Assembly (NCBI GenBank): GCA_965237675.1
Contig: OZ250150.1
Coordinates: 5,472,001-5,536,000 of the forward strand
Length of the DNA: 64,000 nt
Reading direction: 5' to 3'
Origin: Candidatus Latescibacterota bacterium
GTDB taxonomy: Bacteria > Latescibacterota > UBA2968 > GCA-2709665
Shown here: positions 8,507 through 35,368 of the stretch, in pieces
Layout: every line of letters begins with the position of its first letter
How positions within the stretch are numbered: the stretch's first letter is position 1
Made by a program: the position numbers and the translations under genes
The notes under the pieces: generated by a model
Told to the model about the DNA's origin: nothing
What the model saw: the letters and a program-made list of their open reading frames with translations, nothing else
Databases searched by the model: none

Positions 8507-8699
8507 ACATTAAAAAAGCTATCGGCTGTTAGCGTGCAGCCGTCAGCCAGAAACAGTGAGAAAAGGAACCGGTGTGAAGGTGGGGCGGACATTCCTGTCT
8601 GCCCTTATCATTGTCCTTCTGTCGCGATACAGACAGAAGCAAGGCTTGCGCCGTCCTCTTTCCAGTGGGGGAGACGGCGGCGAGTCGCGGCGTGCCCAG

Positions 8700-21512: not shown

Positions 21513-21543
21513 TGCGTCGGCTCCGTCGTGAAATACGAGGATT

Positions 21544-21580
21544 GTTTCAATCCTTGTTCTGATGGAAGATTCCCGACGGT
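21544..21580 (-). repeat. solitary CRISPR-like repeat (family B, best-conserved copy)
   Basis: Minus strand ACCGTCGGGAATCTTCCATCAGAACAAGGATTGAAAC, 37 nt, ATTGAAAC end. Confidence 0.9.
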
Positions 21581-23002: not shown

Positions 23003-25672
23003 GTTTCAATCCGCTCCCCCCACCGAAGTGAGGGGAGATGTCATCTCGGGCGCGTGCGCGAAGTCCTTCCACGAGTTTCAATCCGCTCCCCCCACCGAAG
23101 TGAGGGGAGATATTCAGGATGTTTCCGCGTCTATCGTTCCGTCTCCGGTTTCAATCCGCTCCCCCCACCGAAGTGAGGGGAGATATGGACGAAGAAGTCA
23201 TACACTACGACTCCCGGATAGGTTTCAATCCGCTCCCCCCACCGAAGTGAGGGGAGATTTTTATGATGGACTGGATAGACGCCGAAAGAAACAGTTTCAA
23301 TCCGCTCCCCCCACCGAAGTGAGGGGAGATCTGTATCCGTGCGCCTCATCGCCCTCGACCTCTCACAAGTTTCAATCCGCTCCCCCCACCGAAGTGAGGG
23401 GAGATCAGCGCGGGTATGCCTTCCTCGCGCACGACATCCAAAGTTTCAATCCGCTCCCCCCACCGAAGTGAGGGGAGATGAATCTGACGGGTATCGTACC
23501 CGCCGTCCCACTCGAGTTTCAATCCGCTCCCCCCACCGAAGTGAGGGGAGATCCTTCGCGTATGACGAGGGCCTTGATCCTTTCATGAGACAGTTTCAAT
23601 CCGCTCCCCCCACCGAAGTGAGGGGAGATCGCTTGCTCGGTGGCTGAGAGTTGCGATACTTACGTGTTTCAATCCGCTCCCCCCACCGAAGTGAGGGGAG
23701 ATCTCCCAGGCGGCACAATGGCGGTTAGTGGGAACCAGGTTTCAATCCGCTCCCCCCACCGAAGTGAGGGGAGATCGCCGGGCGGCGACCTGTGGGAAGC
23801 GTCGGGGATGGTCGTTTCAATCCGCTCCCCCCACCGAAGTGAGGGGAGATGCCGTGGGCGTTTTCATTCCGGGAAAGGCTGACATGTTTCAATCCGCTCC
23901 CCCCACCGAAGTGAGGGGAGATCAGGGGCCGCTTGCCGGGGTTACCATCAAGGATCCGCGTTTCAATCCGCTCCCCCCACCGAAGTGAGGGGAGATCTCT
24001 GTCGGGCATGGCGAAAAGAACCAACAAAAGCAAGTTTCAATCCGCTCCCCCCACCGAAGTGAGGGGAGATATCCTTATCTCGCGCCGGCACTGTTGGGTA
24101 CGACGAGTTTCAATCCGCTCCCCCCACCGAAGTGAGGGGAGATTTAAACCGGGGCCACAATACAGGAGGGTAAATAATGGTTTCAATCCGCTCCCCCCAC
24201 CGAAGTGAGGGGAGATGTCGGCCGGAATTCTTGCCGAACACGATAGCGCAGTTTCAATCCGCTCCCCCCACCGAAGTGAGGGGAGATTAATGCCTGATTT
24301 TACTGGCGAACAAAAGAAAAAGTTTCAATCCGCTCCCCCCACCGAAGTGAGGGGAGATGGGCGCACAGATCGCCTCTGAGCGTTCCTTTTGTGGTTTCAA
24401 TCCGCTCCCCCCACCGAAGTGAGGGGAGATTCCTGTCTTCATCCGTGAATACATATCCTTCAGGCATGTTTCAATCCGCTCCCCCCACCGAAGTGAGGGG
24501 AGATCTACGATGCGGTATCGGATGTCGGTGCCTGCAATGTTTCAATCCGCTCCCCCCACCGAAGTGAGGGGAGATAGACAGCGGGTGGGCATTGACGACT
24601 GACGCGATAGGTTTCAATCCGCTCCCCCCACCGAAGTGAGGGGAGATTTGTCTGCCGGACGCGGCGCAATGCCGTCGCCATAAGTTTCAATCCGCTCCCC
24701 CCACCGAAGTGAGGGGAGATCCCGAAATGCAAGGGTGGTGGGACAAGTGCACTCAGGACGTTTCAATCCGCTCCCCCCACCGAAGTGAGGGGAGATGCGC
24801 GATGACGCCAAGACAAAAGTCATTCACAATGTTTCAATCCGCTCCCCCCACCGAAGTGAGGGGAGATTCGTAACCGTGCACGAACTGCTCAAAAGCGTCG
24901 ATGGTTTCAATCCGCTCCCCCCACCGAAGTGAGGGGAGATCCACGCCCCGCGCGGGTTCGCGCAACTCGTAGGAATGTTTCAATCCGCTCCCCCCACCGA
25001 AGTGAGGGGAGATTGCCTGTCTCCTCTTGAATCAGTGACGCGCTCAGGTTTCAATCCGCTCCCCCCACCGAAGTGAGGGGAGATTCATTTTCGTGCCTAC
25101 CTGCACAGCGAAAGACACGGTGTTTCAATCCGCTCCCCCCACCGAAGTGAGGGGAGATTCCCCGACCCCTCCCCTCCCACGGCCGTTCCTCCACGTTTCA
25201 ATCCGCTCCCCCCACCGAAGTGAGGGGAGATCAGGTTGCTCGACAAGGCCGTCCCAGGGGCTACGTGTTTCAATCCGCTCCCCCCACCGAAGTGAGGGGA
25301 GATGTGTCGCCTGTGGCCCTGGGGGTTTTGACCCGTACAGGTTTCAATCCGCTCCCCCCACCGAAGTGAGGGGAGATCCGTGGTGTCCTGGGCCTTGCCC
25401 TGGGTCTATACTGGTTTCAATCCGCTCCCCCCACCGAAGTGAGGGGAGATGTGCCGTCGCGGGCGTACGTCACCTCGGAACCAAAGGTTTCAATCCGCTC
25501 CCCCCACCGAAGTGAGGGGAGATCCAGGGGCGTCCGTGGGAGAGGCGGGTGGTGGGTCCGGGTTTCAATCCGCTCCCCCCACCGAAGTGAGGGGAGATGT
25601 ACGTGGTCGCGGCGGCTTACGCCGCGCTGGGTACGGTTTCAATCCGCTCCCCCCACCGAAGTGAGGGGAGAT
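23003..25672 (-). CRISPR. type I-C CRISPR array, 37 repeats / 36 spacers
   Basis: 37-nt repeat ATCTCCCCTCACTTCGGTGGGGGGAGCGGATTGAAAC (minus strand), period about 73 nt, counted by eye. Confidence 0.98.
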
Positions 25673-25852
25673 GCTGGTTGCTACAACCAGCAGAATACCA
25701 AAGGTTTACACAGGCGGATGCGCGATTCCATCGAATCGGTAACAAACAATCCTGAATTCAACATCGATGAGCCCTCCAACCTGTTATTAAACAAAAGGTT
25801 TCGCAACCCGCGAAACCCCAGGCAAAATTCCGTCACTCTACGTTCGCGCAAC
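25673..25852 (-). promoter_or_regulatory. CRISPR leader
   Basis: Between cas2 and the first repeat; GCGCGAAC...GGGTTTCGCG motifs, AT-richer. Confidence 0.8.
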
Positions 25853-26140
25853 CTATAAAACCAGCGGACCCGATAGGTCCACGGGTTTACTGATACCGTG
25901 ATGCTCTGTCTCCTTTCCGGTGTCTTCGTCCAGGTGATAGATTCGAAGGGAGTCTTGCTCATGATCGATTTCCTTTAACAAACGATTTCGGAGCACGGCC
26001 CATTCCGTTTTTCCGACCTTACATTCAAACAGCGACTTTTGTACTCGTACGCCGAAATCCTCACAGGCTCTTGCGACGCGCCGCAGTCGCTTTTGTCCAG
26101 CCCGGTCAATCGTCGAGACGTCGTACGCGATCAGTTTCAA
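25853..26140 (-). CDS. cas2: CRISPR-associated endonuclease Cas2
   Basis: IAYDVST..RLRRVARACEDFGVRVQKSLFEC..DSLRIY; probable TTG start. Confidence 0.95.
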   Translation of the reverse strand: MKLIAYDVSTIDRAGQKRLRRVARACEDFGVRVQKSLFECKVGKTEWAVLRNRLLKEIDHEQDSLRIYHLDEDTGKETEHHGISKPVDLSGPLVL

Positions 26141-26170
26141 TCCGCTCTCCTGCAATAGAACAGGTGAAAT
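26134..26170 (-). repeat. 37-nt array-repeat mimic over the cas2 RBS/start
   Basis: ATTTCACCTGTTCTATTGCAGGAGAGCGGATTGAAAC; 16/17 match at the 3' end, 7/9 at the 5' end. Confidence 0.75.
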
Positions 26171-26176
26171 CCTACT

Positions 26177-27238
26177 TCATTTGGGTATGTACGGGATATA
26201 GTCGGGAATATCGCCACGGAGCTTTCGCGCCAGCAACCTGGCTTGAATGCTGAACACCTGCCCTAAACGGATATTTTCCTTGAACAGCGCGTGCTTTACC
26301 TCGGTTTGCTTCCGGCGTTGCCAGGCCTGGATAACCTCTTTCCTGCCCCGGTCGGTAAACTCCACTGCGCCGCCTTCGCGCTCGAGGAAGTGTCCAGGTT
26401 CAATCTGGCGACGATTGATCAGGGTCAATGCCAGCCGCTCAGCCAAACAGGGTCGGAACTCTTCCATCAGATCCAGCGCACAAGCCGGCCTACCAGCCCT
26501 TGTGGCATGGAGCCAGCCGACGTACGGGTCCAGCCCAGCGGTCGTCAACGCGGCCAAACAGTCGTGCCGCACCAGTGCGTAGATGAAGGAAAGCAGGCAG
26601 TTTACCCGGTCACGGGGCGGACGCCGCGAGCGCGTAATAAATCTGAAGTCTTCCCGCTGTTGTTTAAGCATGTACTGGAAGGCCGAGAAATATTTCCTGG
26701 CGCCCAGACCTTCCATACCCCTGATCGGATCGAGTGCCTCCCGAAGCCCGCAATTCGTTGCAACGGGTGGAGCATTGCCGAGTTGATCGATCAGCCGGGC
26801 TAATTCATCTGCGGCACCCACCAACTCCCTGCGGTCCGAATCCGTCTCGGCTTCGCGGCCGGACCGCAATAGATTGGAACGCGAATTCTGCAGCTTTCCG
26901 GCGACGAACTGCCGGGCAATGCGAGCAGCAACCTCCGGGCTGTCCGCCGCCGCGTATTGAGCCCGGCGGAGCAGATACCGGGTGTCTCCGCTTCCCAGAA
27001 CCTGCGCCAGCAGATGTCCGTTCTCGGTATGGTAATGGACGGCAACCTGATGCTGCCAGCACAGGGACATTGCAGGTGGCGTAACCACGACCCGACCGAA
27101 CGCGCAGATACTTTCCAGGTGATGAATCGGCACGGTCAATCGTGTTTGTTTTTCGATTTCGACCCGGAGCGTCAAATGATCCCTGTGGACAACAGTGCCC
27201 GGAGTCGTCAGATACAGGGTGTTCTGGATGATAGCCAT
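26177..27238 (-). CDS. cas1: type I-C Cas1
   Basis: NTLYLTT, RGMEG..A..YF, RSRRPPRDRVNCLLSF, ALDLMEEFR. Confidence 0.97.
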   Translation of the reverse strand: MAIIQNTLYLTTPGTVVHRDHLTLRVEIEKQTRLTVPIHHLESICAFGRVVVTPPAMSLCWQHQVAVHYHTENGHLLAQVLGSGDTRYLLRRAQYAAADSPEVAARIARQFVAGKLQNSRSNLLRSGREAETDSDRRELVGAADELARLIDQLGNAPPVATNCGLREALDPIRGMEGLGARKYFSAFQYMLKQQREDFRFITRSRRPPRDRVNCLLSFIYALVRHDCLAALTTAGLDPYVGWLHATRAGRPACALDLMEEFRPCLAERLALTLINRRQIEPGHFLEREGGAVEFTDRGRKEVIQAWQRRKQTEVKHALFKENIRLGQVFSIQARLLARKLRGDIPDYIPYIPK

Positions 27239-27281
27239 AACAGGTCCGTAAGCCAGGTTTGGCCTGTGGAACCAGGCAAAT

Positions 27282-27983
27282 TTAGTCTGAGGTGTCGAAC
27301 ACCTCCCGGCCGGCTTGAAGAAGGATGGGCGGAGCGCTGGTTATTTCGGGAAGGCAGTAATGAAAAAGCGAGCACTCCGAACATTGTGGCTTATGGACGG
27401 CTTGGGGGACCACTTCCTCTTCGATAAGCCGATGCACGGCTTCGATGGCGTGTTCTGTGAGTCGGCGCAGATCGCCGTCAAACTCAACTTCTCGCCGGCG
27501 CCTGCTCGTGGCGTGGTAGATAGCCCCTCGGGGAATCTCCAATTCGAACATTTCTTCGAGGCACAACGCTTGTGCGCAAAGCTGGGCGTCATCGTTGTCG
27601 AACTTGCGGCGTTTGCCCTTCTTATATTCAACTGGATAGACGCTTTCGACATTATCCGGCAAATATCGGGTTTTTTTTCGCTTAGAAGAACGTTTGAGTT
27701 TCACCTCAACAATATCGCATTTTCCAGAGAGCCCCAGCCTTTGGGACCATACCGGCAATGCCCGAAGCACTTCTGTATGTGCCGCCTTCTCGTACCCTGG
27801 TACATCGGCCTGCTCGTGAAATTGACTGCCGATTAGCGTGTGCTCGTTTTCGGTGAAAGTACCCTCGACATGGATCAAGCCCGCCCGCCGAGGGCAATAG
27901 AGGTACTGGTTGATAGCGGAGAGCGGAATGATCCGCTCTCCGCTATCGTACGGGTGGATCGGCTGGAAAACGGATTCATTCAT
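27282..27983 (-). CDS. cas4: Cas4
   Basis: YCPRR, GKCDIVE, PVEYKKG, QLCAQALCLEEM, CSECSL..C. Confidence 0.95.
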   Translation of the reverse strand: MNESVFQPIHPYDSGERIIPLSAINQYLYCPRRAGLIHVEGTFTENEHTLIGSQFHEQADVPGYEKAAHTEVLRALPVWSQRLGLSGKCDIVEVKLKRSSKRKKTRYLPDNVESVYPVEYKKGKRRKFDNDDAQLCAQALCLEEMFELEIPRGAIYHATSRRRREVEFDGDLRRLTEHAIEAVHRLIEEEVVPQAVHKPQCSECSLFHYCLPEITSAPPILLQAGREVFDTSD

Positions 27984-28929
27984 GACGCCTATTTAAGCAA
28001 ATGCCGGCGGGCAGATCGACACTGTCCCATCCGCAGCCAACCTCATAATCGGCGAAGGATTGCGGGAATTCCACGCTGTCCTTCAGTTTTACCTCTATTC
28101 CCTCAAAAAGCTTGTGGGCATGGGCACAGCCGAGGCGGGCTTCGCGTTTTTTTTGTTCGGCATTATTTTCATGTTGGGTGCCAACGTGCTCAAAGTCGTA
28201 AATCCCTCGCACCACCATTTCACCGCGAGCAGCGGAGCGGTCATGCTCGAACATCTGGTTGAGCGCATCGAAGAGGACATCGAGGTCGGCGTTAGTGAAC
28301 CCGGTGCGTTCGGCAAAAGCAGGCGAGACGTAAACCTTGGCGGCGAAGAGGGCATAGGGTACGATGTGCTTATTGCCCATGGTGCGTTCCTTGTCTGCGT
28401 CCTCCTCTTTTGTGACGGCACCGCGAGTAATGGAGATCTCCAGTGGCGTGATAGGATGGTACGACTGGCCAAAGGTGAACTGCACCGGACCGCGCACCTG
28501 ACCCCAAGCGGAGCCTTTCATGATGCTTTCCCCTACGCCGAGTACACCGCCGAACGCACGCACATCAAAGAACTCACGGCACAGCCATTTCATGGCAGCT
28601 TCTTGCTTCTCGTTCTTGGAAGCACCCGAGTCCAAACTCTCGGCACTTTTCTCAACGCCATTGTCGATCTCGTTATTGATTATGGCACCCTGCCTTATCA
28701 ACAGATTATAGCCGTTGGCATCATCTTCAGCCCGTTCGGGCGAGAACATTTCAACGAAGTTGCGCACCTTACGCTTGAGGCACACGTCGGAGACGAGACC
28801 CCGATTGGTGTTGTGATCTTGACGCGGCATGTTACCAGCATCGGGATCGCCATTGGGATTTCCGTTGGTGACCTCGAAGAGCAGCAAAACGTCGTGCCGA
28901 TTGGTGAGAATATCGTTGTTTCGATTCAT
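27976..28929 (-). CDS. cas7: Cas7/Csd2
   Basis: NGNPNGDPDAGNMPR, SDVCLKRKVRN, FDVRAFG, GQVRGPVQ, FEHDRSAARG. Confidence 0.97.
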   Translation of the reverse strand: MNRNNDILTNRHDVLLLFEVTNGNPNGDPDAGNMPRQDHNTNRGLVSDVCLKRKVRNFVEMFSPERAEDDANGYNLLIRQGAIINNEIDNGVEKSAESLDSGASKNEKQEAAMKWLCREFFDVRAFGGVLGVGESIMKGSAWGQVRGPVQFTFGQSYHPITPLEISITRGAVTKEEDADKERTMGNKHIVPYALFAAKVYVSPAFAERTGFTNADLDVLFDALNQMFEHDRSAARGEMVVRGIYDFEHVGTQHENNAEQKKREARLGCAHAHKLFEGIEVKLKDSVEFPQSFADYEVGCGWDSVDLPAGICLNRRHE

Positions 28930-28954: not shown

Positions 28955-30802
28955 TTATTGGTTGCTTTCCTTTTTTTCTTGTGCTGCCTCGCGGGCGACG
29001 CGGTCGGCGGCTTTTTGCTGGTAAAAACCGAGGGCGAAACGCCCCTGCGCGTGCAAATCCAACGTACGGGGGAATGGGTAGATTTTGGTTGACACTTCTT
29101 GAATAGCCTCGTCCAAGAAGCGGTCATGTCCTTTGTACTTATCGGACTTGCGGATATTGTTGAGATGGTGGCGGTTGAGCTTGAGGAGGACCGGAAACAC
29201 CGAGGCTGGCGAGGCCATGGCAGTACCAAAATAACGCTCGGCGACTCCGGCTCCTTCGAGCTGATAATCATGTGCCTTGGCTTGGGCCTCGGTGAGCACA
29301 GCGAGCAACCGTCCGCATTGATAGGCGGCATCTTCCGCCTTTGCGTCCTGTTGTTCAGTAATTTCCATGGTGTTTCCCTTTCGGTTTCGATTGAGAACGA
29401 GCTTTGCCAAGGCTAACCGGGAATGGTTCAACAATGCCGTGCTTCCATCGCGTGCCATATCAACGCGCAGGCGGTTCAACAGGGGATGCAAAAGAGCAAG
29501 TGAGGGCGCGGTCCCTTCCAGCGCGGCGCGAAATAACTGAGCGGTCACTTCCGTCTGCAAATCTTTTGCGTCGCGTACTGTAGTGCAAGCCAGTCGGAAC
29601 AGGGCTAATGGCGGCATCTTTTCTTTGCCAGTGGGCAGGCGCACCGGCTCCAGATCGAGATCGCGGAACCAGCGCCGCAGATTTTCCGTGGCGGTTTCCA
29701 GCGTCGTTTGCATCCAGTGGCGCACAACGATGCGGCCACTATTGCCCGCGAGAGTGACGGCATGGAACTGCTCCTGCCGCATTGCATCGCGTTCCTGTCC
29801 GACCCACGGGGACTTCAAAAAATGCGCCACTGCCATGGGATCGGCTTGGTTGAGTAAAACACCCCAATCGCTGGTGGCGTCCGTTTCATTCCGAGTCCAA
29901 AAACAGCATGATGCCTGCCCTAAGCGGATGGAATGATCTTTGCGGCCAAGCATCGCGTTGAGCGCGGTGCAATAGGCGGTGGCCGCCCGGGTGGAGGTGG
30001 AAGCATTTAGACTTTGCTCAAAACCGTAGGAGGCGAAGGCATCCTTATCAAACGAGACAATCGACGCGCCGAAGGCTTGGGTGTTGGGCACGCCTTGGAC
30101 TTTGGGGTTGTGGGTCATCGCAATAGGCTGATCGCTCTCCCCGGTGACCAAACAGAGTCCGTGGGGCGCATCCGCCTCGTGGTCTTCATTTTCCTTCTCG
30201 AATTGATTCCGCCAAAAGGGCCGGATGTGAATTTCATCCTCCAGAAGCAATTGCTCCTCCACGCGGAATGAAAAGTTGTCCGGCCCTAGTTTAACCTCTC
30301 CGCCATCGGCTTTGGTGATCCACCAAGCAGGTTTCTCCTTGGGCTTGGCGTCAGAACTGATACCCCAGCGCATAAAGGACAGCATCTGTCCCGGTTCGGG
30401 CTTGAACGCCAACAGGGTCTTGAGCGTCAGACTGAGTGTGTGCTCCTGCGCCTTTTCAATCTGCGCCCAAAAGTCATTGTACTTACGCAAATTGTTCTCA
30501 TTACGGTCCTTCCGCTTCTTTTCGGACATAGGTTGTTCCGGGTTCGCGTCAAATCCGAACACGGCCGTAATGCCATCCGCCATGAACTCGGCCACCCCGC
30601 CAGCCACCTTGGGCCGAGTTGTCTTTGGACAATCGAACTCCTTGCCTCGGTTCCTTTCCCCCTCGGTTTCCACCGGCCCTTGGCCCACGAGATTGCCCAT
30701 CGTGTCCAAAGTAACGATCCATCGCACTGCCTTTGGTTTGAAAGCTAGGTTATTCAGCAGTTTTCGAGATTTCGCGAAATCGTTCAAATGTTGCAGCAGC
30801 AT
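28955..30802 (-). CDS. cas8c: Cas8c/Csd1
   Basis: CLVTG, IVSFDKDAFASYG, NSGRIVVR, AYQCGRLLA, QGRFALGFYQQ. Confidence 0.95.
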   Translation of the reverse strand: MLLQHLNDFAKSRKLLNNLAFKPKAVRWIVTLDTMGNLVGQGPVETEGERNRGKEFDCPKTTRPKVAGGVAEFMADGITAVFGFDANPEQPMSEKKRKDRNENNLRKYNDFWAQIEKAQEHTLSLTLKTLLAFKPEPGQMLSFMRWGISSDAKPKEKPAWWITKADGGEVKLGPDNFSFRVEEQLLLEDEIHIRPFWRNQFEKENEDHEADAPHGLCLVTGESDQPIAMTHNPKVQGVPNTQAFGASIVSFDKDAFASYGFEQSLNASTSTRAATAYCTALNAMLGRKDHSIRLGQASCCFWTRNETDATSDWGVLLNQADPMAVAHFLKSPWVGQERDAMRQEQFHAVTLAGNSGRIVVRHWMQTTLETATENLRRWFRDLDLEPVRLPTGKEKMPPLALFRLACTTVRDAKDLQTEVTAQLFRAALEGTAPSLALLHPLLNRLRVDMARDGSTALLNHSRLALAKLVLNRNRKGNTMEITEQQDAKAEDAAYQCGRLLAVLTEAQAKAHDYQLEGAGVAERYFGTAMASPASVFPVLLKLNRHHLNNIRKSDKYKGHDRFLDEAIQEVSTKIYPFPRTLDLHAQGRFALGFYQQKAADRVAREAAQEKKESNQ

Positions 30803-30804
30803 TA

Positions 30805-31602
30805 TCAAATCCCTTTTGGTTCGAGAATTTCAACTTCGTCGGGATGACAAACCAAGGTGGAATCCTTCATCTTGGCGCGGAAGAAACAGGCTTCGGGTCG
30901 AGCCAATTCGCCGACAAAACGTGCGGTATTCTTCTTGGGTCCCAGTTCATCGGGGCGTTTCCAGCGAAAGCCCTGAGCACGTGCCGTGGGCGGAAAAACA
31001 TCATAGAGCATCAAGCCCAAGTCCTCCACGGGCTGTCGCCAACTGATGCCCAGCTCAGTAGCTCGCCCTTCCAGCGCGGCCTGGGGATCATCAACCCACT
31101 CGAAATCCGCCGCGAATTCACGCATACCCAAGGCGGGCCGGTGGAAGCACTTGCCCTGCTGAGCGCGGCGCTTGAACTCGACGAAATACTTCACCGGTGT
31201 GTCGTTCGGGCGATTCGCCAACGGTGTGGTACGCAGTTCGGCACTGATGATGTATTCCACCTCTTGGAGAGCCAACATATTGCGCTGAGTGCCGTCAGGT
31301 GCGCCGCCCCCAGCCTCAATGGGCGATACCTTCTCCGGCTGAGCCATCCATTGGCCGACATTGCGCAGGCTGATGACTGACTGCACTTCATTGCGCCGAA
31401 TCGAGGCCCAGCGTCCTCGCCGAACCACCCGGACGACAGCGACGCAATAACAAACTTGAGGTTCCCAAAACACGGCTTCCAAAATGCCACGTGCGGCAGA
31501 GGGCGTCATCACCGAATAGCTGACGCGCTCCACTTTCATTTCGGGGCGAGTGAAACAAGCCCAATCGCCCCATACTCTGAGATGTACATGATTGTTTTTC
31601 AT
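30805..31602 (-). CDS. cas5: Cas5c (Cas5d)
   Basis: VWGDWACFTRPEMKVERVSYSVMTPSAARGILEA. Confidence 0.97.
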   Translation of the reverse strand: MKNNHVHLRVWGDWACFTRPEMKVERVSYSVMTPSAARGILEAVFWEPQVCYCVAVVRVVRRGRWASIRRNEVQSVISLRNVGQWMAQPEKVSPIEAGGGAPDGTQRNMLALQEVEYIISAELRTTPLANRPNDTPVKYFVEFKRRAQQGKCFHRPALGMREFAADFEWVDDPQAALEGRATELGISWRQPVEDLGLMLYDVFPPTARAQGFRWKRPDELGPKKNTARFVGELARPEACFFRAKMKDSTLVCHPDEVEILEPKGI

Positions 31603-31640
31603 GTTTCAATCCATTCCTCATACTGATGGAAAGGGGAAAC
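31603..31640 (-). repeat. repeat mimic directly abutting the cas5 ATG
   Basis: GTTTCCCCTTTCCATCAGTATGAGGAATGGATTGAAAC-ATG. Confidence 0.7.
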
Positions 31641-31682: not shown

Positions 31683-31866
31683 TCATAACAAGAAATCCTC
31701 GGTCGGACGTTGGTCGATAACTACGCCGAGATGTTCGTGATAGGCTGCTTCATCCAGTACGCTCAACTCCATACCGGGCAACACCGGACGAAGCAGTCCC
31801 ATTTTATCAGCTTTCTGAAAGTCGCGCAAATGAAGATTCACCATAAAACGTTGGAGGTCGCGCAAA
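31683..31866 (-). pseudogene. cas3: Cas3 C-terminal fragment separated by IS256
   Basis: LRDLQRFMVNL... rejoins in frame with ...RKDLR when the IS and one TSD are removed. Confidence 0.85.
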
Positions 31867-33291
31867 GGGCAAGTACTATTATTAGTTGAAATAGCAGAGG
31901 CGTTCAATCAGCGGCGAAAGCGTTTTGCGTGTCATGATCGAGCGCGAGATGATTGCGTAGGGCAAGTCTGAGTACGGGAAGAAAGCGGTATCCTTTGATC
32001 CTCCGCAATCGGGGCTCGATATCCAACAGCGCGGCTGCCAACCACCGATATCGCTGATCGGAGTTGTTCCATCGTTTCACATTACGGGTGCGCTGTGCGA
32101 TCATGGCGTTGAGGGATTCGATGCAGTTGGTGGTGCGAAACGATTGCTTGAGTTGTGGCATCAGTCCCAGGCGATGGAGGGTGAGGGTTTCTTCGAGCCC
32201 TTCCTCCAGGCTGTTGAGGGCCGATGCATTCATCAGGGTCAGGGAGGGCTTGAGGGCATACAGCGCGGCTTTGGCTTCTTTGTAGGTGTCCATGTCGTAG
32301 GCACTTTGAAGCGCTTTCTTGACCTCACTCTGCTGTGTCTTGGGCAAATAGGCGATCACGTTCTCCCGTTTGTGCCACTGACAGCGTTGAATGGCGACAT
32401 AACCGGAAAGGGCTTTTGTGAGGGCACTATACAAGCCCTTTGAGCCGTCGATGAGGCAAAGCAGCCCTTGGTGATACTGCAATCCGCGATCGATGAGCGA
32501 ATCGACAAACTGGCGGCACACGCGCTCATTTTCGCTGGCGGCCTGCACGAACCCCAGCGGGATCTTGTGCCCGTCGATGGTCACGCCAAGGGCGATGATC
32601 ATTTCCTGATCGGCAAAGGTCTTGCCATCCATAAACAGCCCCACCAGGTCATAGCCCGAAAGAAACCGTTCTTGAAACTGTCTCAGCTTGGCCGCCGATG
32701 CCCTGATGAACCGCCTCGAGACACTCGATGAAGACAAGCCAAACGCCTCGGGTATCGCCTCTGCGCAACTGGCGTAAGAACGCGTCGCAATGCCGCTGAC
32801 CACGCGCAGCAGCAACCCTCCGTCCATGTTTCTGGGTCGCTGCAAGTGGTGATATACCTCCAGAGGAACTTCCTCATTGGCTTCCACGTCACGCACCCTG
32901 GGCACCGTAATGGGCACTTTTTGATCCGACAGATACACCGATCCCGGTTGAGCGCCCCACCGACGATTCGGGGTCTTGCCCGCTTTACGACTGTGTTTCT
33001 TGCCCGTCAACCCGGCAACCTCTTGCTGCAAGATTTCTGCCACAGCGTCCAGACCAAGCGGGATCAGCGCTTGGATCAATGCCACACGGACGTCAACATC
33101 CTCCAGGGCTTCTCCCAGGAAGGCGCCAGACGTCACCCCGGCATCCCTATTCGACTTGACTTCACGGAGGTTCGACGGTACTTTTTTCATCACAGGCTCC
33201 TTTGGTTGAGGATACGGTCTTCTTCGTCGAGACTGCCGTATCCAATTTACATCGGAGCCTCTTCTATTTCAACTAAGATAGGCACAATCCC
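31867..33291 (-). mobile_element. IS256-family insertion sequence
   Basis: 8-bp TSD CGCGCAAA (31859-31866, 33292-33299); about 34-bp imperfect TIR GGG...TTAGTTGAAATAG.AGAGG. Confidence 0.93.
31904..33193 (-). CDS. IS256-family transposase
   Basis: FMDG, LIDGSKGL, QRCQWHKRENV, RTTNCIES. Confidence 0.95.
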   Translation of the reverse strand: MMKKVPSNLREVKSNRDAGVTSGAFLGEALEDVDVRVALIQALIPLGLDAVAEILQQEVAGLTGKKHSRKAGKTPNRRWGAQPGSVYLSDQKVPITVPRVRDVEANEEVPLEVYHHLQRPRNMDGGLLLRVVSGIATRSYASCAEAIPEAFGLSSSSVSRRFIRASAAKLRQFQERFLSGYDLVGLFMDGKTFADQEMIIALGVTIDGHKIPLGFVQAASENERVCRQFVDSLIDRGLQYHQGLLCLIDGSKGLYSALTKALSGYVAIQRCQWHKRENVIAYLPKTQQSEVKKALQSAYDMDTYKEAKAALYALKPSLTLMNASALNSLEEGLEETLTLHRLGLMPQLKQSFRTTNCIESLNAMIAQRTRNVKRWNNSDQRYRWLAAALLDIEPRLRRIKGYRFLPVLRLALRNHLALDHDTQNAFAAD

Positions 33292-35368
33292 CGCGCAAAT
33301 CCTTGCGAGTAAAGCGCAGACCCTCTATTTGAGGGCGGCTTCGGATAGCGGCTACCTTTTCCAAGGCTTTCTCCCTTGGCGCAATTACGGCCTGGGTGTC
33401 GTCAGAAATTACCTTTGCCTTGCGGGCTACTTCACGGAAACGCAATGCCTCCCGATCCTCCTGAATGGAGCATTCCCGTTGGCGATGATGATCCGTGGGC
33501 ACGTATTGAAAAAGCTCGCCAAAGTAACGACTGAACAGATCCGGCTCGTTGGTCAAGTCATCCGCAGACAACTGATCCAGCAACCGCACCGCAATGTCCG
33601 TGGCTACCCGATACACGCCGCCGGGCAGCTTGGCGTCCGTTGGCCGGAAAACCACCACGCGCCCCTTGCCCGGTAGGCGGCCTTCCCGATTGCACCGTCC
33701 AGCTGCCTGCACAATCGAATCCAGCGGCCCCAATGCGCGGTAAACCAACGGGAAATCAATATCCACCCCGGCCTCTACCACCTGAGTAGATACCAACCAG
33801 CAGAACCTGCCTTCCCTCAAACGCCGATGGACTTTTTTTAACACCTGGGTTCGATGTTCTGCACACATTGAGGAAGAAAGATGGAATACGCTTCTCAGTT
33901 TCGCTACCAACGCTTCTCTGCTCAATTCCCCCTCGTTTAGAGAAACCCGCAGCCGTTCCCACCATTCGGTAGCCTGTCTGCGCGTATTCACGACGCCCAA
34001 GGCTTGAGGCTCGCTCGCCCATTCCGCAGCCAATTCTGACCAATCGCTCTCCGTGGTTCGCACCTCGTACACTACCCGGCCCAACTTCTGAAACAACTCG
34101 CCATGCTGTGACGCGACTTCCTTCATTTCATCCGCATCAAACCCATTCGACAACGACGTGCTGCGCCTAAAGGCCGGTTGGGTAGCGGTAGAGAAAACGA
34201 AACTCGTGCGATAGTGTTTCTCAAGATCGCGTAGCACGTGCAGGAGCGGATTGAGCAGATACGAAGGCAGGGTCTGCACCTCATCCAGCAATACCACGGC
34301 ATTCGCGATGTTGTGCAGTTTCCGGCACTTGGAGGTACGGTTGGCGAAGAGTGACTCGATGAACTGCACCGAGGTAGTGACGACAATTGGCGCATCCCAG
34401 TTCTCCGCCGCCAGTTCCCCTGGGGATCGGACTTGCTCCTCATCGTCATCCTTTGCGACCACGGCCGAATGGTGTTCAATCACGATGCCTTCGTCTTGGG
34501 GATCGAGTATGTTGCGGTATTCGGCGGCGTTCTGCTCAATAATTGACAGGTAAGGTATCACCACTATAACCCGCTGCATTCCATGCGCCCGCGCATGTTC
34601 CAAGGCAAAGGCCATGCTCGATAGTGTTTTGCCCCCACCCGTCGGCACGGTCAAAGAAAAGAAGCCTGCTGGCTCCGCCGCCTTCGCCAAGCAGTCTTCA
34701 AACACTCTGTTGCGCAACTTATTGAGTTCGCCGGACGCATCAAACTTGCTCCGGTGCGCTTGCAGTCGCTCCAGCAACAACGCGGCATCCATCTTAACTG
34801 GATGTCGTTGCCGACGGATGTTGAATTGTTCCGTATCCAGAAAATCCGCATCAACCAGGCAGGAAAACAACATCCGCACGTATAATTCCGTGGTGGCCTT
34901 GTCTTTCGCGGGATTGGCAAATTCCGGATCGACTATCTCGTCCCGAATTTCCCCCAGTTCTGCTTCAAATCGCTTTACCAGAGTATCGAGCCGACTGATG
35001 GCATCGTACTTCTTTCCGCAAACCAATGCCTGCAAATCACTCACGTCATGTAGTCCCGCGTGATGCCCCGCGATGGCAAAGGCTGGGCCGAGCCAGTTCT
35101 GCCGAAAAGCCAGCGCGGCACCATACATCGCATGATGAGTTTCAACTGATCCCGGGCGCTCGCCTGCCAGATATTCCTGGAATGGATCCCGATACTTACC
35201 TAAGTCGTGGAGCAGCCCGGTCCATTTCGCAGCCAGACCGAACGGTTCGCCGAATTCACGAGCCTTGTCCGCCACGTTGCGCAGATGCTCGGATAACGGT
35301 TGCCAGCGCGATCTGTCGGAATCGCGTTCCCTCATAGCTGTTTCGGCTGTGTGGGCGTAATAGTTCAT
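33292..35368 (-). pseudogene. cas3: Cas3 HD nuclease-helicase, truncated by IS256
   Basis: YYAH, LLHDLGK, HHAGL, LVDADFLDT, PTGGGKT, DEVQ, QAAGRCNREG. Confidence 0.95.

Follow-up and report, generated by a model that had tools for sequence, protein, structure and literature searches.

A decayed solitary CRISPR repeat at the cas1-cas2 junction of a type I-C locus and its probable co-option as the start region of cas2

The short gap between cas1 and cas2 in a type I-C CRISPR-Cas locus of a Candidatus Latescibacterota bacterium holds a full-length but degenerate, solitary copy of the repeat of its own CRISPR array. This element can be classed as a variant solitary repeat unit; such units, and repeat-like sequences in cas loci in general, are already known. 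Its 3′ half has probably been recruited as the region where translation of cas2 starts, while the rest of the repeat decayed, a reading to which we give a probability of about 0.6. A CRISPR repeat would thus have been recycled to provide a cas gene with its ribosome-binding site (RBS) and start codon, the GGAG...UUG of the repeat being turned into a gene start. The functions assigned so far to repeat-like sequences in cas loci, as described in the accessible parts of the sources cited below, are those of guide RNAs acting on promoters.

The window, i.e., the whole stretch of 64,000 nucleotides that was analysed, carries on its minus strand the series cas3-IS256-cas5c-cas8c-cas7-cas4-cas1-cas2-leader-array (Table 1). 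NCBIfam matches for Cas1c, Cas5c, Cas7/Csd2 and Cas8c confirm the type I-C assignment that had been made from the sequence in a first-pass annotation. The insertion of an IS256-family element splits cas3 (35368..31686, minus strand) and cuts cas5-cas2 off from promoters upstream of cas3; interference may be disabled by the split. A promoter scan of positions 25600-27400 found no promoter.

Table 1. Positions of the features discussed, in the window and in the loci of relatives (L numbers; positions are those of each locus)
Feature	Sequence	Position	Strand	Evidence or remark
cas3, 5′ part	window	33293..35368	minus	amino acids 1-680 of the 738 in a relative
IS256-family transposase gene, inserted in cas3	window	31904..33193	minus	
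cas3, 3′ remnant	window	31686..31865	minus	amino acids 679-738; 98% identical to L030 Cas3
Second repeat-like unit; handle-like end GGATTGAAAC abuts cas5c ATG (31602)	window	31603..31640	minus	18.7 bits, E 3.2e-4
cas5c	window	30805..31602	minus	TIGR01876, 114.9 bits
cas8c	window	28955..30808	minus	profile match
cas7 (Csd2)	window	27976..28926	minus	profile match
cas4	window	27282..27983	minus	profile match
cas1 (type I-C)	window	26177..27238	minus	TIGR03640, 415.6 bits (cut-off 385)
Solitary degenerate CRISPR repeat, full length, 37 nt	window	26134..26170	minus	covariance model positions 1-37, 23.9 bits; exact 14-mer
AGGAG, likely Shine-Dalgarno sequence of cas2, derived from repeat 3′ stem arm GGGGAG	window	26147..26151	minus	sequence; invariant 8/8
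11 nt identical to repeat 3′ tag (crRNA 5′ handle), CGGATTGAAAC	window	26134..26144	minus	sequence; array-repeat fold (10-bp stem, then 11 nt)
TTG, likely cas2 start codon, in former handle	window	26138..26140	minus	Cas2 profile alignment; orthologue starts
cas2, 95 aa plus stop	window	25853..26140	minus	TIGR01573, E 2.2e-15
Leader, 180 nt, cas2 to first repeat	window	25673..25852	minus	
CRISPR array, 37 repeats of 37 nt	window	23003..25672	minus	transcribed on minus strand
cas7-cas4 unit	L016	6226-6262	sense	covariance model, 35.8 bits
cas7-cas4 unit	L022	6278-6314	sense	covariance model, 25.3 bits
cas7-cas4 unit	L030	6201-6237	sense	covariance model, 21.9 bits
cas7-cas4 unit	L021	6259-6295	sense	covariance model, 19.9 bits
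cas7-cas4 unit	L028	6186-6232	sense	covariance model, 16.2 bits
cas4-cas1 unit with tandem second handle or half-unit	L028	6947-7001	sense	covariance model, 32.4 bits
cas4-cas1 unit with tandem second handle or half-unit	L021	6941-6990	sense	covariance model, 29.8 bits
cas4-cas1 unit with tandem second handle or half-unit	L024	6956-7000	sense	
cas4-cas1 unit	L022		sense	covariance model, 25.6 bits
cas4-cas1 unit	L018		sense	covariance model, 19.8 bits
cas4-cas1 units	L016, L027, L031, L032		sense	

Read on the minus strand from 26170 to 26134, the element is ATTTCACCTGTTCTATTGCAGGAGAGCGGATTGAAAC, and the array repeat is ATCTCCCCTCACTTCGGTGGGGGGAGCGGATTGAAAC. The two agree at 24 of 37 positions, as counted by eye, with identity at all of the last 14 positions and at 7 of the first 9. 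Exact copies of the 14-mer at the 3′ end of the repeat number 38 in the window, of which 37 belong to the array and one to the element; when up to two mismatches are allowed, 39 are seen where 0.79 are expected by chance. The 5.6-Mb genome as a whole holds no exact copies beyond these 38, the one in the element being the sole copy outside the array; six sites are one base off, and the reversed 14-mer, which served as control pattern, has no match at all. To model the covariance of the repeat, 24 distinct array repeats taken from relatives were used; the resulting model matches the element end to end (23.9 bits, E 7.4e-6; 10.8 kb, both strands, filters off), and the best unrelated match in this search scored 8.9 bits. 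A chance match of the element to the repeat is ruled out by the 14-mer counts in window and genome and by the covariance model. The first array repeat lies 462 nt downstream, and within 5 kb of the element the covariance model found no other match with E < 0.4. Since there is no second unit at spacer distance, the element is not a mini-array. It combines significant similarity to the repeat, a position outside the array and conservation in related loci, which defines it as a solitary repeat unit. The observation of the first-pass annotation that the 37-mer resembles the repeat at both ends around a different, but still pairable, core (CCTG/CAGG) is thereby confirmed, the core being predicted to form an inner 5-bp hairpin with a pairing probability of about 0.8 when folded in context.

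The element lies in the gap of 36 nt between the cas1 stop (26177) and cas2. It carries an AGGAG motif, a likely Shine-Dalgarno sequence, which is separated by 6 nt from the TTG that is the likely start codon of cas2. Position 3 of the Cas2 family profile aligns to K7 of the long open reading frame; the profile therefore begins two residues earlier, which fits a start at this TTG. The Cas2 proteins of orthologues, as derived from tblastn, start with MKLIAYDV or MFILIAYDV, and the N-terminus in the window was placed at MKLIAYDVS. With TTG as start codon, Cas2 thus begins with M-K-L-I-A-Y-D and not with M-F-I-L-I-A-Y-D; in the relatives with the latter N-terminus, the ATG overlaps the cas1 stop. 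A Shine-Dalgarno sequence located 5-9 nt before a start that fits the family, and conserved in orthologues, marks the region as a probable translation initiation region. No alternative start with a Shine-Dalgarno sequence was found that fits the Cas2 N-terminus, the TTG further upstream in the same frame, at 26155, being without an RBS. The proposal that the repeat-like element carries the RBS and probable start codon of cas2 has thus gained support from the profile alignment, from the starts of the orthologues and from the invariance of these motifs in eight of eight elements of this form (see below). We infer that cas2 is indeed translated from these two motifs and that the present role of the element needs no Cas protein.

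The following scenario may account for these features. A single repeat copy would have come to lie between cas1 and cas2 in an ancestor of this clade of I-C adaptation modules, and cas2 would then have recruited the 3′ half of this copy for the initiation of its translation. GGGGAG, once the 3′ arm of the stem, would now serve as the Shine-Dalgarno sequence AGGAG, and the TTG within the former handle (AUUGAAAC) as the start codon. The repeat already holds GGGGAG-N4-UUG, which two substitutions would turn into AGGAG-N6-UUG. An intact hairpin would bury the Shine-Dalgarno sequence; decay of the old 5′ arm would have weakened the hairpin and freed AGGAG, part of which is probably still covered by the residual 5-bp hairpin. 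The frame in which cas2 starts inside the handle, referred to below as the fused form, would be obtained by a 10-nt deletion from a non-fused form (handle, ATG TTT ATC C, TG ATC...). The 3′ half would have been kept because it became the start region of cas2. In two relatives, L024 and L028, cas1 seems to start at a handle TTG (TTG AAA CAA AAC), M-K-Q-N replacing M-A-I-I-Q-N. In L028, this TTG is preceded by a half-unit without hairpin, AGGGAGA plus handle. Thus, the same co-option seems to have taken place at another junction.

A protein-guided scan with one genome per species returned 50 loci. The Cas1 proteins encoded in 31 of them (L009-L039), from genomes recorded under many phyla, are 75-92% identical to that of the window. 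Together with the window, these make up 32 close loci, of which seven have the fused TTG form (the window, L009, L010, L011, L012, L015 and L017), four a repeat-like unit at cas1-cas2 that is followed by a normal ATG or GTG (L021, L022, L030 and L032) and 21 no unit at this junction, where mostly the cas1 stop overlaps the cas2 ATG (TAATG). The unit of L022 is an intermediate form, in which the 5′ part is identical to its own repeat at 9 of 12 positions. No unit was present in the 19 of 19 cas1-cas2 junctions read in the distant canonical I-C loci (L040-L058), and a scan for the 14-mer in 15 distant I-C loci with a clear array found none at cas1-cas2. One further fused copy, on the contig L059, was the only one returned by a scan of metagenomes with a pattern in which only AGGAG, its spacing and the initial codons of cas2 were fixed and the spacer and the 5′ half were left free, which brings the total of fused elements to eight. 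In a tree of cas1 plus cas2, the window groups with L009-L012 (support 100), and 16 of the 18 members of the wider clade carry at least one repeat-like unit at a cas gene junction, whereas outside that clade only L031 does. This distribution implies that the junction units are largely inherited. The effector modules that adjoin the cas4-cas1-cas2 module of L009-L039 are I-C-like and of at least three different kinds, one of them ordered cas5-cas8-cas7-cas3; the presence of one module across many phyla and with various effectors points to frequent horizontal transfer and to shuffling of modules.

All eight fused elements have AGGAG and ATTGAAA unchanged. The 6 nt that separate these motifs vary (AGCGGA, CGCGGA, AGCGAA, TGCGAA, AAAAAA or AGAACA), and with them the handle bases that are dispensable for translation, CGGA being replaced by CGAA, AAAA or AACA. 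In the part upstream of AGGAG, 11 of 34 (L010), 15 of 35 (L012), 16 of 33 (L009) and 16 of 33 (L011) positions differ from the window, i.e., a fraction of 0.32-0.48, and four-fold degenerate sites of the same pairs differ at 0.36-0.52 in cas2 and 0.48-0.55 in cas1. Thus, the 5′ half drifts about like four-fold sites in four of five comparisons with the window. In the fifth, that with L059, it is better kept than neutral (5/35 differences vs. 16/40 at four-fold sites; P about 0.001). It is better kept also between L009 and L011 (3/35 vs. 13/33), but less conserved than four-fold sites between L010 and L012 (12/34 vs. 7/42). As judged from these substitution counts, the fused elements give no consistent sign of constraint beyond the RBS and the start codon. 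Conservation of the repeat mimic across related I-C loci, which had been put forward as a check on its function, was therefore found in part: the mimic is kept in a subset (7 of 32 close loci, plus L059), but what is conserved in it are the needs of translation.

The first-pass annotation had proposed another function for the element, in which cleavage by the processing enzyme, Cas5c, would strip the RBS from cas2 and so give feedback control of adaptation. The geometry for this is right, as AGGAG and the start codon lie on opposite sides of the would-be cut, between 26145 and 26144. More generally, Cas5c may still recognise the element, and either the cut would remove AGGAG, or Cas5c, followed by Cas7, would stay on the handle that contains the TTG, both resulting in feedback. 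The abundance of the effector would then gate the synthesis of Cas2, and the units at cas4, cas1 and cas5 described below would work in the same way. We consider such recognition of the element by Cas5c possible, but doubtful. In its favor, the handle CGGATTGAAAC is identical to that of the array repeat at 11 of 11 positions, including the 3 nt after the cut, and is preceded by three further identical bases. The determinants described for BhaCas5c are the base of the stem, the 3 nt after the cut and the 3′ overhang, and not the loop or the 5′ tail (PMC8524198, accessible part), and the parts which this enzyme reportedly needs are the best-preserved ones of the element. The fold, however, argues against it. 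The array repeat, as RNA AUCUCCCCUCACUUCGGUGGGGGGAGCGGAUUGAAAC, folds into a stem of 10 bp with a UUCG loop (-19.1 kcal/mol) and a tail of 11 nt, CGGAUUGAAAC, whereas a free energy of only -5.4 kcal/mol is predicted for the hairpin of the element in the same register. In context, the inner 5-bp hairpin is predicted to cover the first three bases of AGGAG, and the pairs next to the would-be cut (3-26, 4-25 and 5-24) have probabilities of 0.02-0.11 and are predicted to be open, although these three stem positions can still pair in the covariance-model alignment (U-G, U-A and C-G). Thus, according to the fold prediction, the element has no stable stem that abuts the cut site. It shares with the canonical Cas5c (Cas5d) substrate, described as a hairpin with an 11-nt 3′ tail ending in ATTGAAAC (PMC8524198, accessible part), a tail identical to that of the array, but its stem has 5 inner bp instead of 10 bp, and the Cas5c of the clade departs from the canonical triad.

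The canonical catalytic triad of Cas5c consists of Tyr (or His), Lys and His, and the solved Cas5c proteins show (Y/H)-W-K and K-H at the corresponding positions, those of D. vulgaris and M. succiniciproducens having H-W-K and K-H. In the Cas5c of the window, F-W-E (F45) and K-Y are found instead; two of the three canonical residues are missing, and only the Lys is canonical. The same residues occur in all 21 relatives with a Cas5c that is at least 68% identical, except L036 (Y-W-E) and L023 (K-H). The RNase chemistry is therefore not to be taken for granted; from the residues, it would seem that either the catalytic positions have moved in this clade or crRNA processing works differently. No Cas6 gene was detected in the genome (99.9% complete), which leaves Cas5c as the only candidate for a repeat RNase. 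Comparison with the relatives is likewise divided. While L059, the closest relative, and the pair L009/L011 keep the 5′ half better than neutral, it evolves like four-fold sites in the other comparisons with the window; handle bases outside the start codon (CGG after the cut) decay in L010, L012, L015 and L017, and 21 of the 32 close loci manage without a cas1-cas2 unit. Of the proposed stripping of the RBS, the geometry thus stands, but the open base of the stem, the drifting handle and the incomplete triad speak against it.

Some weight is added to recognition by Cas5c by the placement of units at the starts of cas genes throughout the clade. They are found on the sense strand at the cas7-cas4, cas4-cas1 and cas1-cas2 junctions, in many cases with no base left between their 3′ end and the start codon: the ATG directly follows the last base of the handle in 11 of the 16 non-fused units listed. 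Searches of the operons of L016, L022 and L028 with the covariance model (8.5 kb each, both strands, filters off) gave five matches with E < 0.01, all five being sense-strand units at gene junctions. Compensating stem changes occurred in L016, where a C-G pair became U-A, and in L022, of which the unit has an 8-bp stem (CUUCUCUC/GAGGGAAG, -19.2 kcal/mol); the cas4-cas1 unit of L028 has lost the base of its stem. Stems were judged from folds of single sequences and model alignments, as a MAFFT alignment of 14 units shifted the arms between rows. The non-fused units before cas4 and cas1 in relatives have strong hairpins and near-perfect handles, neither of which is needed for translation, suggesting that the element family has a function beyond the supply of an RBS. 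Handles seem better kept than arms (156/176 vs. 92/160 for the 3′ arm and 124/192; Fisher P 9e-11 and 5e-8), but since the units were found through their handles, this comparison is biased and provides no evidence of selection.

In the cas7-cas4 units, the handle abuts the ATG of cas4, and the units are flanked by a duplication of 12-13 nt of the former overlap between the cas7 stop and the cas4 start (ATGAGTGAAYTG in L016 and L030, ATGAGTAAAGCAA in L021 and L022). Recombination with self-spacers was considered as the origin of the exact joints between handle and ATG but gained no support, as the pre-insertion sequences end in GAA, GTC and TAA and not in the protospacer-adjacent motif (PAM) TTC. 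At the cas4-cas1 junction of L028, L024 and L021, a full unit is followed in tandem by a second handle or half-unit, and it is the TTG of this second handle that forms the apparent cas1 start of L024 and L028. The second unit of the window, before cas5c, lies in an insert of 67 nt that is absent from L023 and L030; its TTCCATCAG core, shared with a second repeat family, is more like that family than like the local array.

It is unlikely that the units of the clade are working Cas5c sites, with 11-nt handles that end at the starts of cas4, cas1, cas2 and, in the window, cas5. If they were, cutting or binding would produce crRNA-like mRNAs, each consisting of a handle and an open reading frame and ending in the next hairpin, and the subunit of the effector with RNase and handle-binding activity would set the amount of adaptation machinery. 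In synthetic operons, engineered cleavage sites of Csy4 (Cas6f) separate cistrons. That device was designed, whereas here, if Cas5c cuts the units, a natural operon would likewise be split at repeat hairpins; no natural counterpart of such cistron separation was found in the literature searched. The units would then be the natural equivalent of the Csy4 operon insulators, a post-transcriptional autoregulation undescribed for any CRISPR type, and would constitute a new link at the RNA level between interference and adaptation in a type I system. If Cas5c does not read them, the units mark how adaptation modules splice onto different effector modules.

Alternatively, the element could be a neutral scar, left by recombination or ectopic repeat duplication during module shuffling, with cas2 being translated from another signal. 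In line with this, many single repeat units are judged to be spurious duplications or recombination substrates by Shmakov et al. (PMC10120712, accessible part), the same cas4-cas1-cas2 module is found beside three different I-C effector variants, and most of the element drifts. However, AGGAG and TTGAAA are invariant in eight of eight elements across lineages in which four-fold sites differ by up to 0.67, and no other start codon with a Shine-Dalgarno sequence fits the N-terminus of Cas2, the one at 26155 having no RBS. A neutral scar is thus improbable. Still less probable is a guide of the CreR/crlRNA type, in which the handle and a downstream "spacer", bound in Cascade, would repress a partially matching promoter: degenerate repeats are described to regulate cas genes in types I-B, I-E, I-F and V-A, and a candidate of such appearance, consisting of a hairpin and handle in antisense orientation, ~30 nt and a terminator, is present upstream of cas5 in L010, L014 and L027, but the element has no second repeat within spacer distance, its "spacer" is cas2 coding sequence, and within the window only the self site matches the seed at 9 or more of 10 positions, flanked by AAC and not by TTC, the reported PAM (PMC8406640, accessible part). 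A PAM-flanked promoter target, as in CreR/CreA systems, is thus lacking within the window.

The co-option of a solitary repeat as the cas2 start region can be set against several known systems. In the survey of Shmakov et al. (2023), repeat-like sequences are reported in 34% of 1206 I-C loci, 7% having mini-arrays, and single repeat units are viewed as mostly spurious and possibly as recombination substrates or Cas-titrating RNAs (PMC10120712, accessible part). The element resembles these units in being one repeat-like copy outside the array and inside the cas locus that is kept in related loci, but the accessible part of that survey makes no mention of units at cas1-cas2, of abutment to start codons or of the supply of an RBS or start. 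The CreR, CreA and crlRNA mini-arrays, described as guides that act on DNA promoters (10.1101/2023.03.10.532045; PMC9458426; accessible parts), likewise involve degenerate repeats in cas loci and use the effector for self-regulation. However, their spacer is usually flanked by two repeats and matches its target in part, whereas here one unit is found in an mRNA leader, with no target in the window. The Racr RNA anti-CRISPRs of phages are also solitary repeat mimics, which can bind repeat-processing and backbone Cas proteins according to the accessible part of the source (PMC10651486), but they are phage-encoded inhibitors, whereas the present unit is chromosomal, lies in a cas operon and overlaps a gene start. 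No report was found of a repeat unit that supplies the start of a cas gene or of Cas5c acting on cas mRNA, which does not prove that none exists.

Several further repeat-like elements were observed. The antisense elements of L010 (2738-2764), L014 (2799-2825) and L027 (740-766), all on the minus strand of loci with a divergent I-C effector, consist of a small hairpin plus CGGATTGAAAC, are antisense to the cas genes and are followed, after ~30 nt, by a terminator-like hairpin. They are located just upstream of a promoter-like site (TTGACA...TATATT) before cas5 and look like regulatory genes of the CreR/crlRNA type. Lone copies of the second 37-nt repeat family (...CTTCCATCAGAACAAGGATTGAAAC) are found on the minus strand of the window at about 21530-21564 and about 2750-2783; this family forms an array of 33 copies in L009 (11880-15017). 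Finally, the leader of L022 contains a degenerate, handle-bearing repeat fragment (8525-8550), ~70 nt before the first array repeat.
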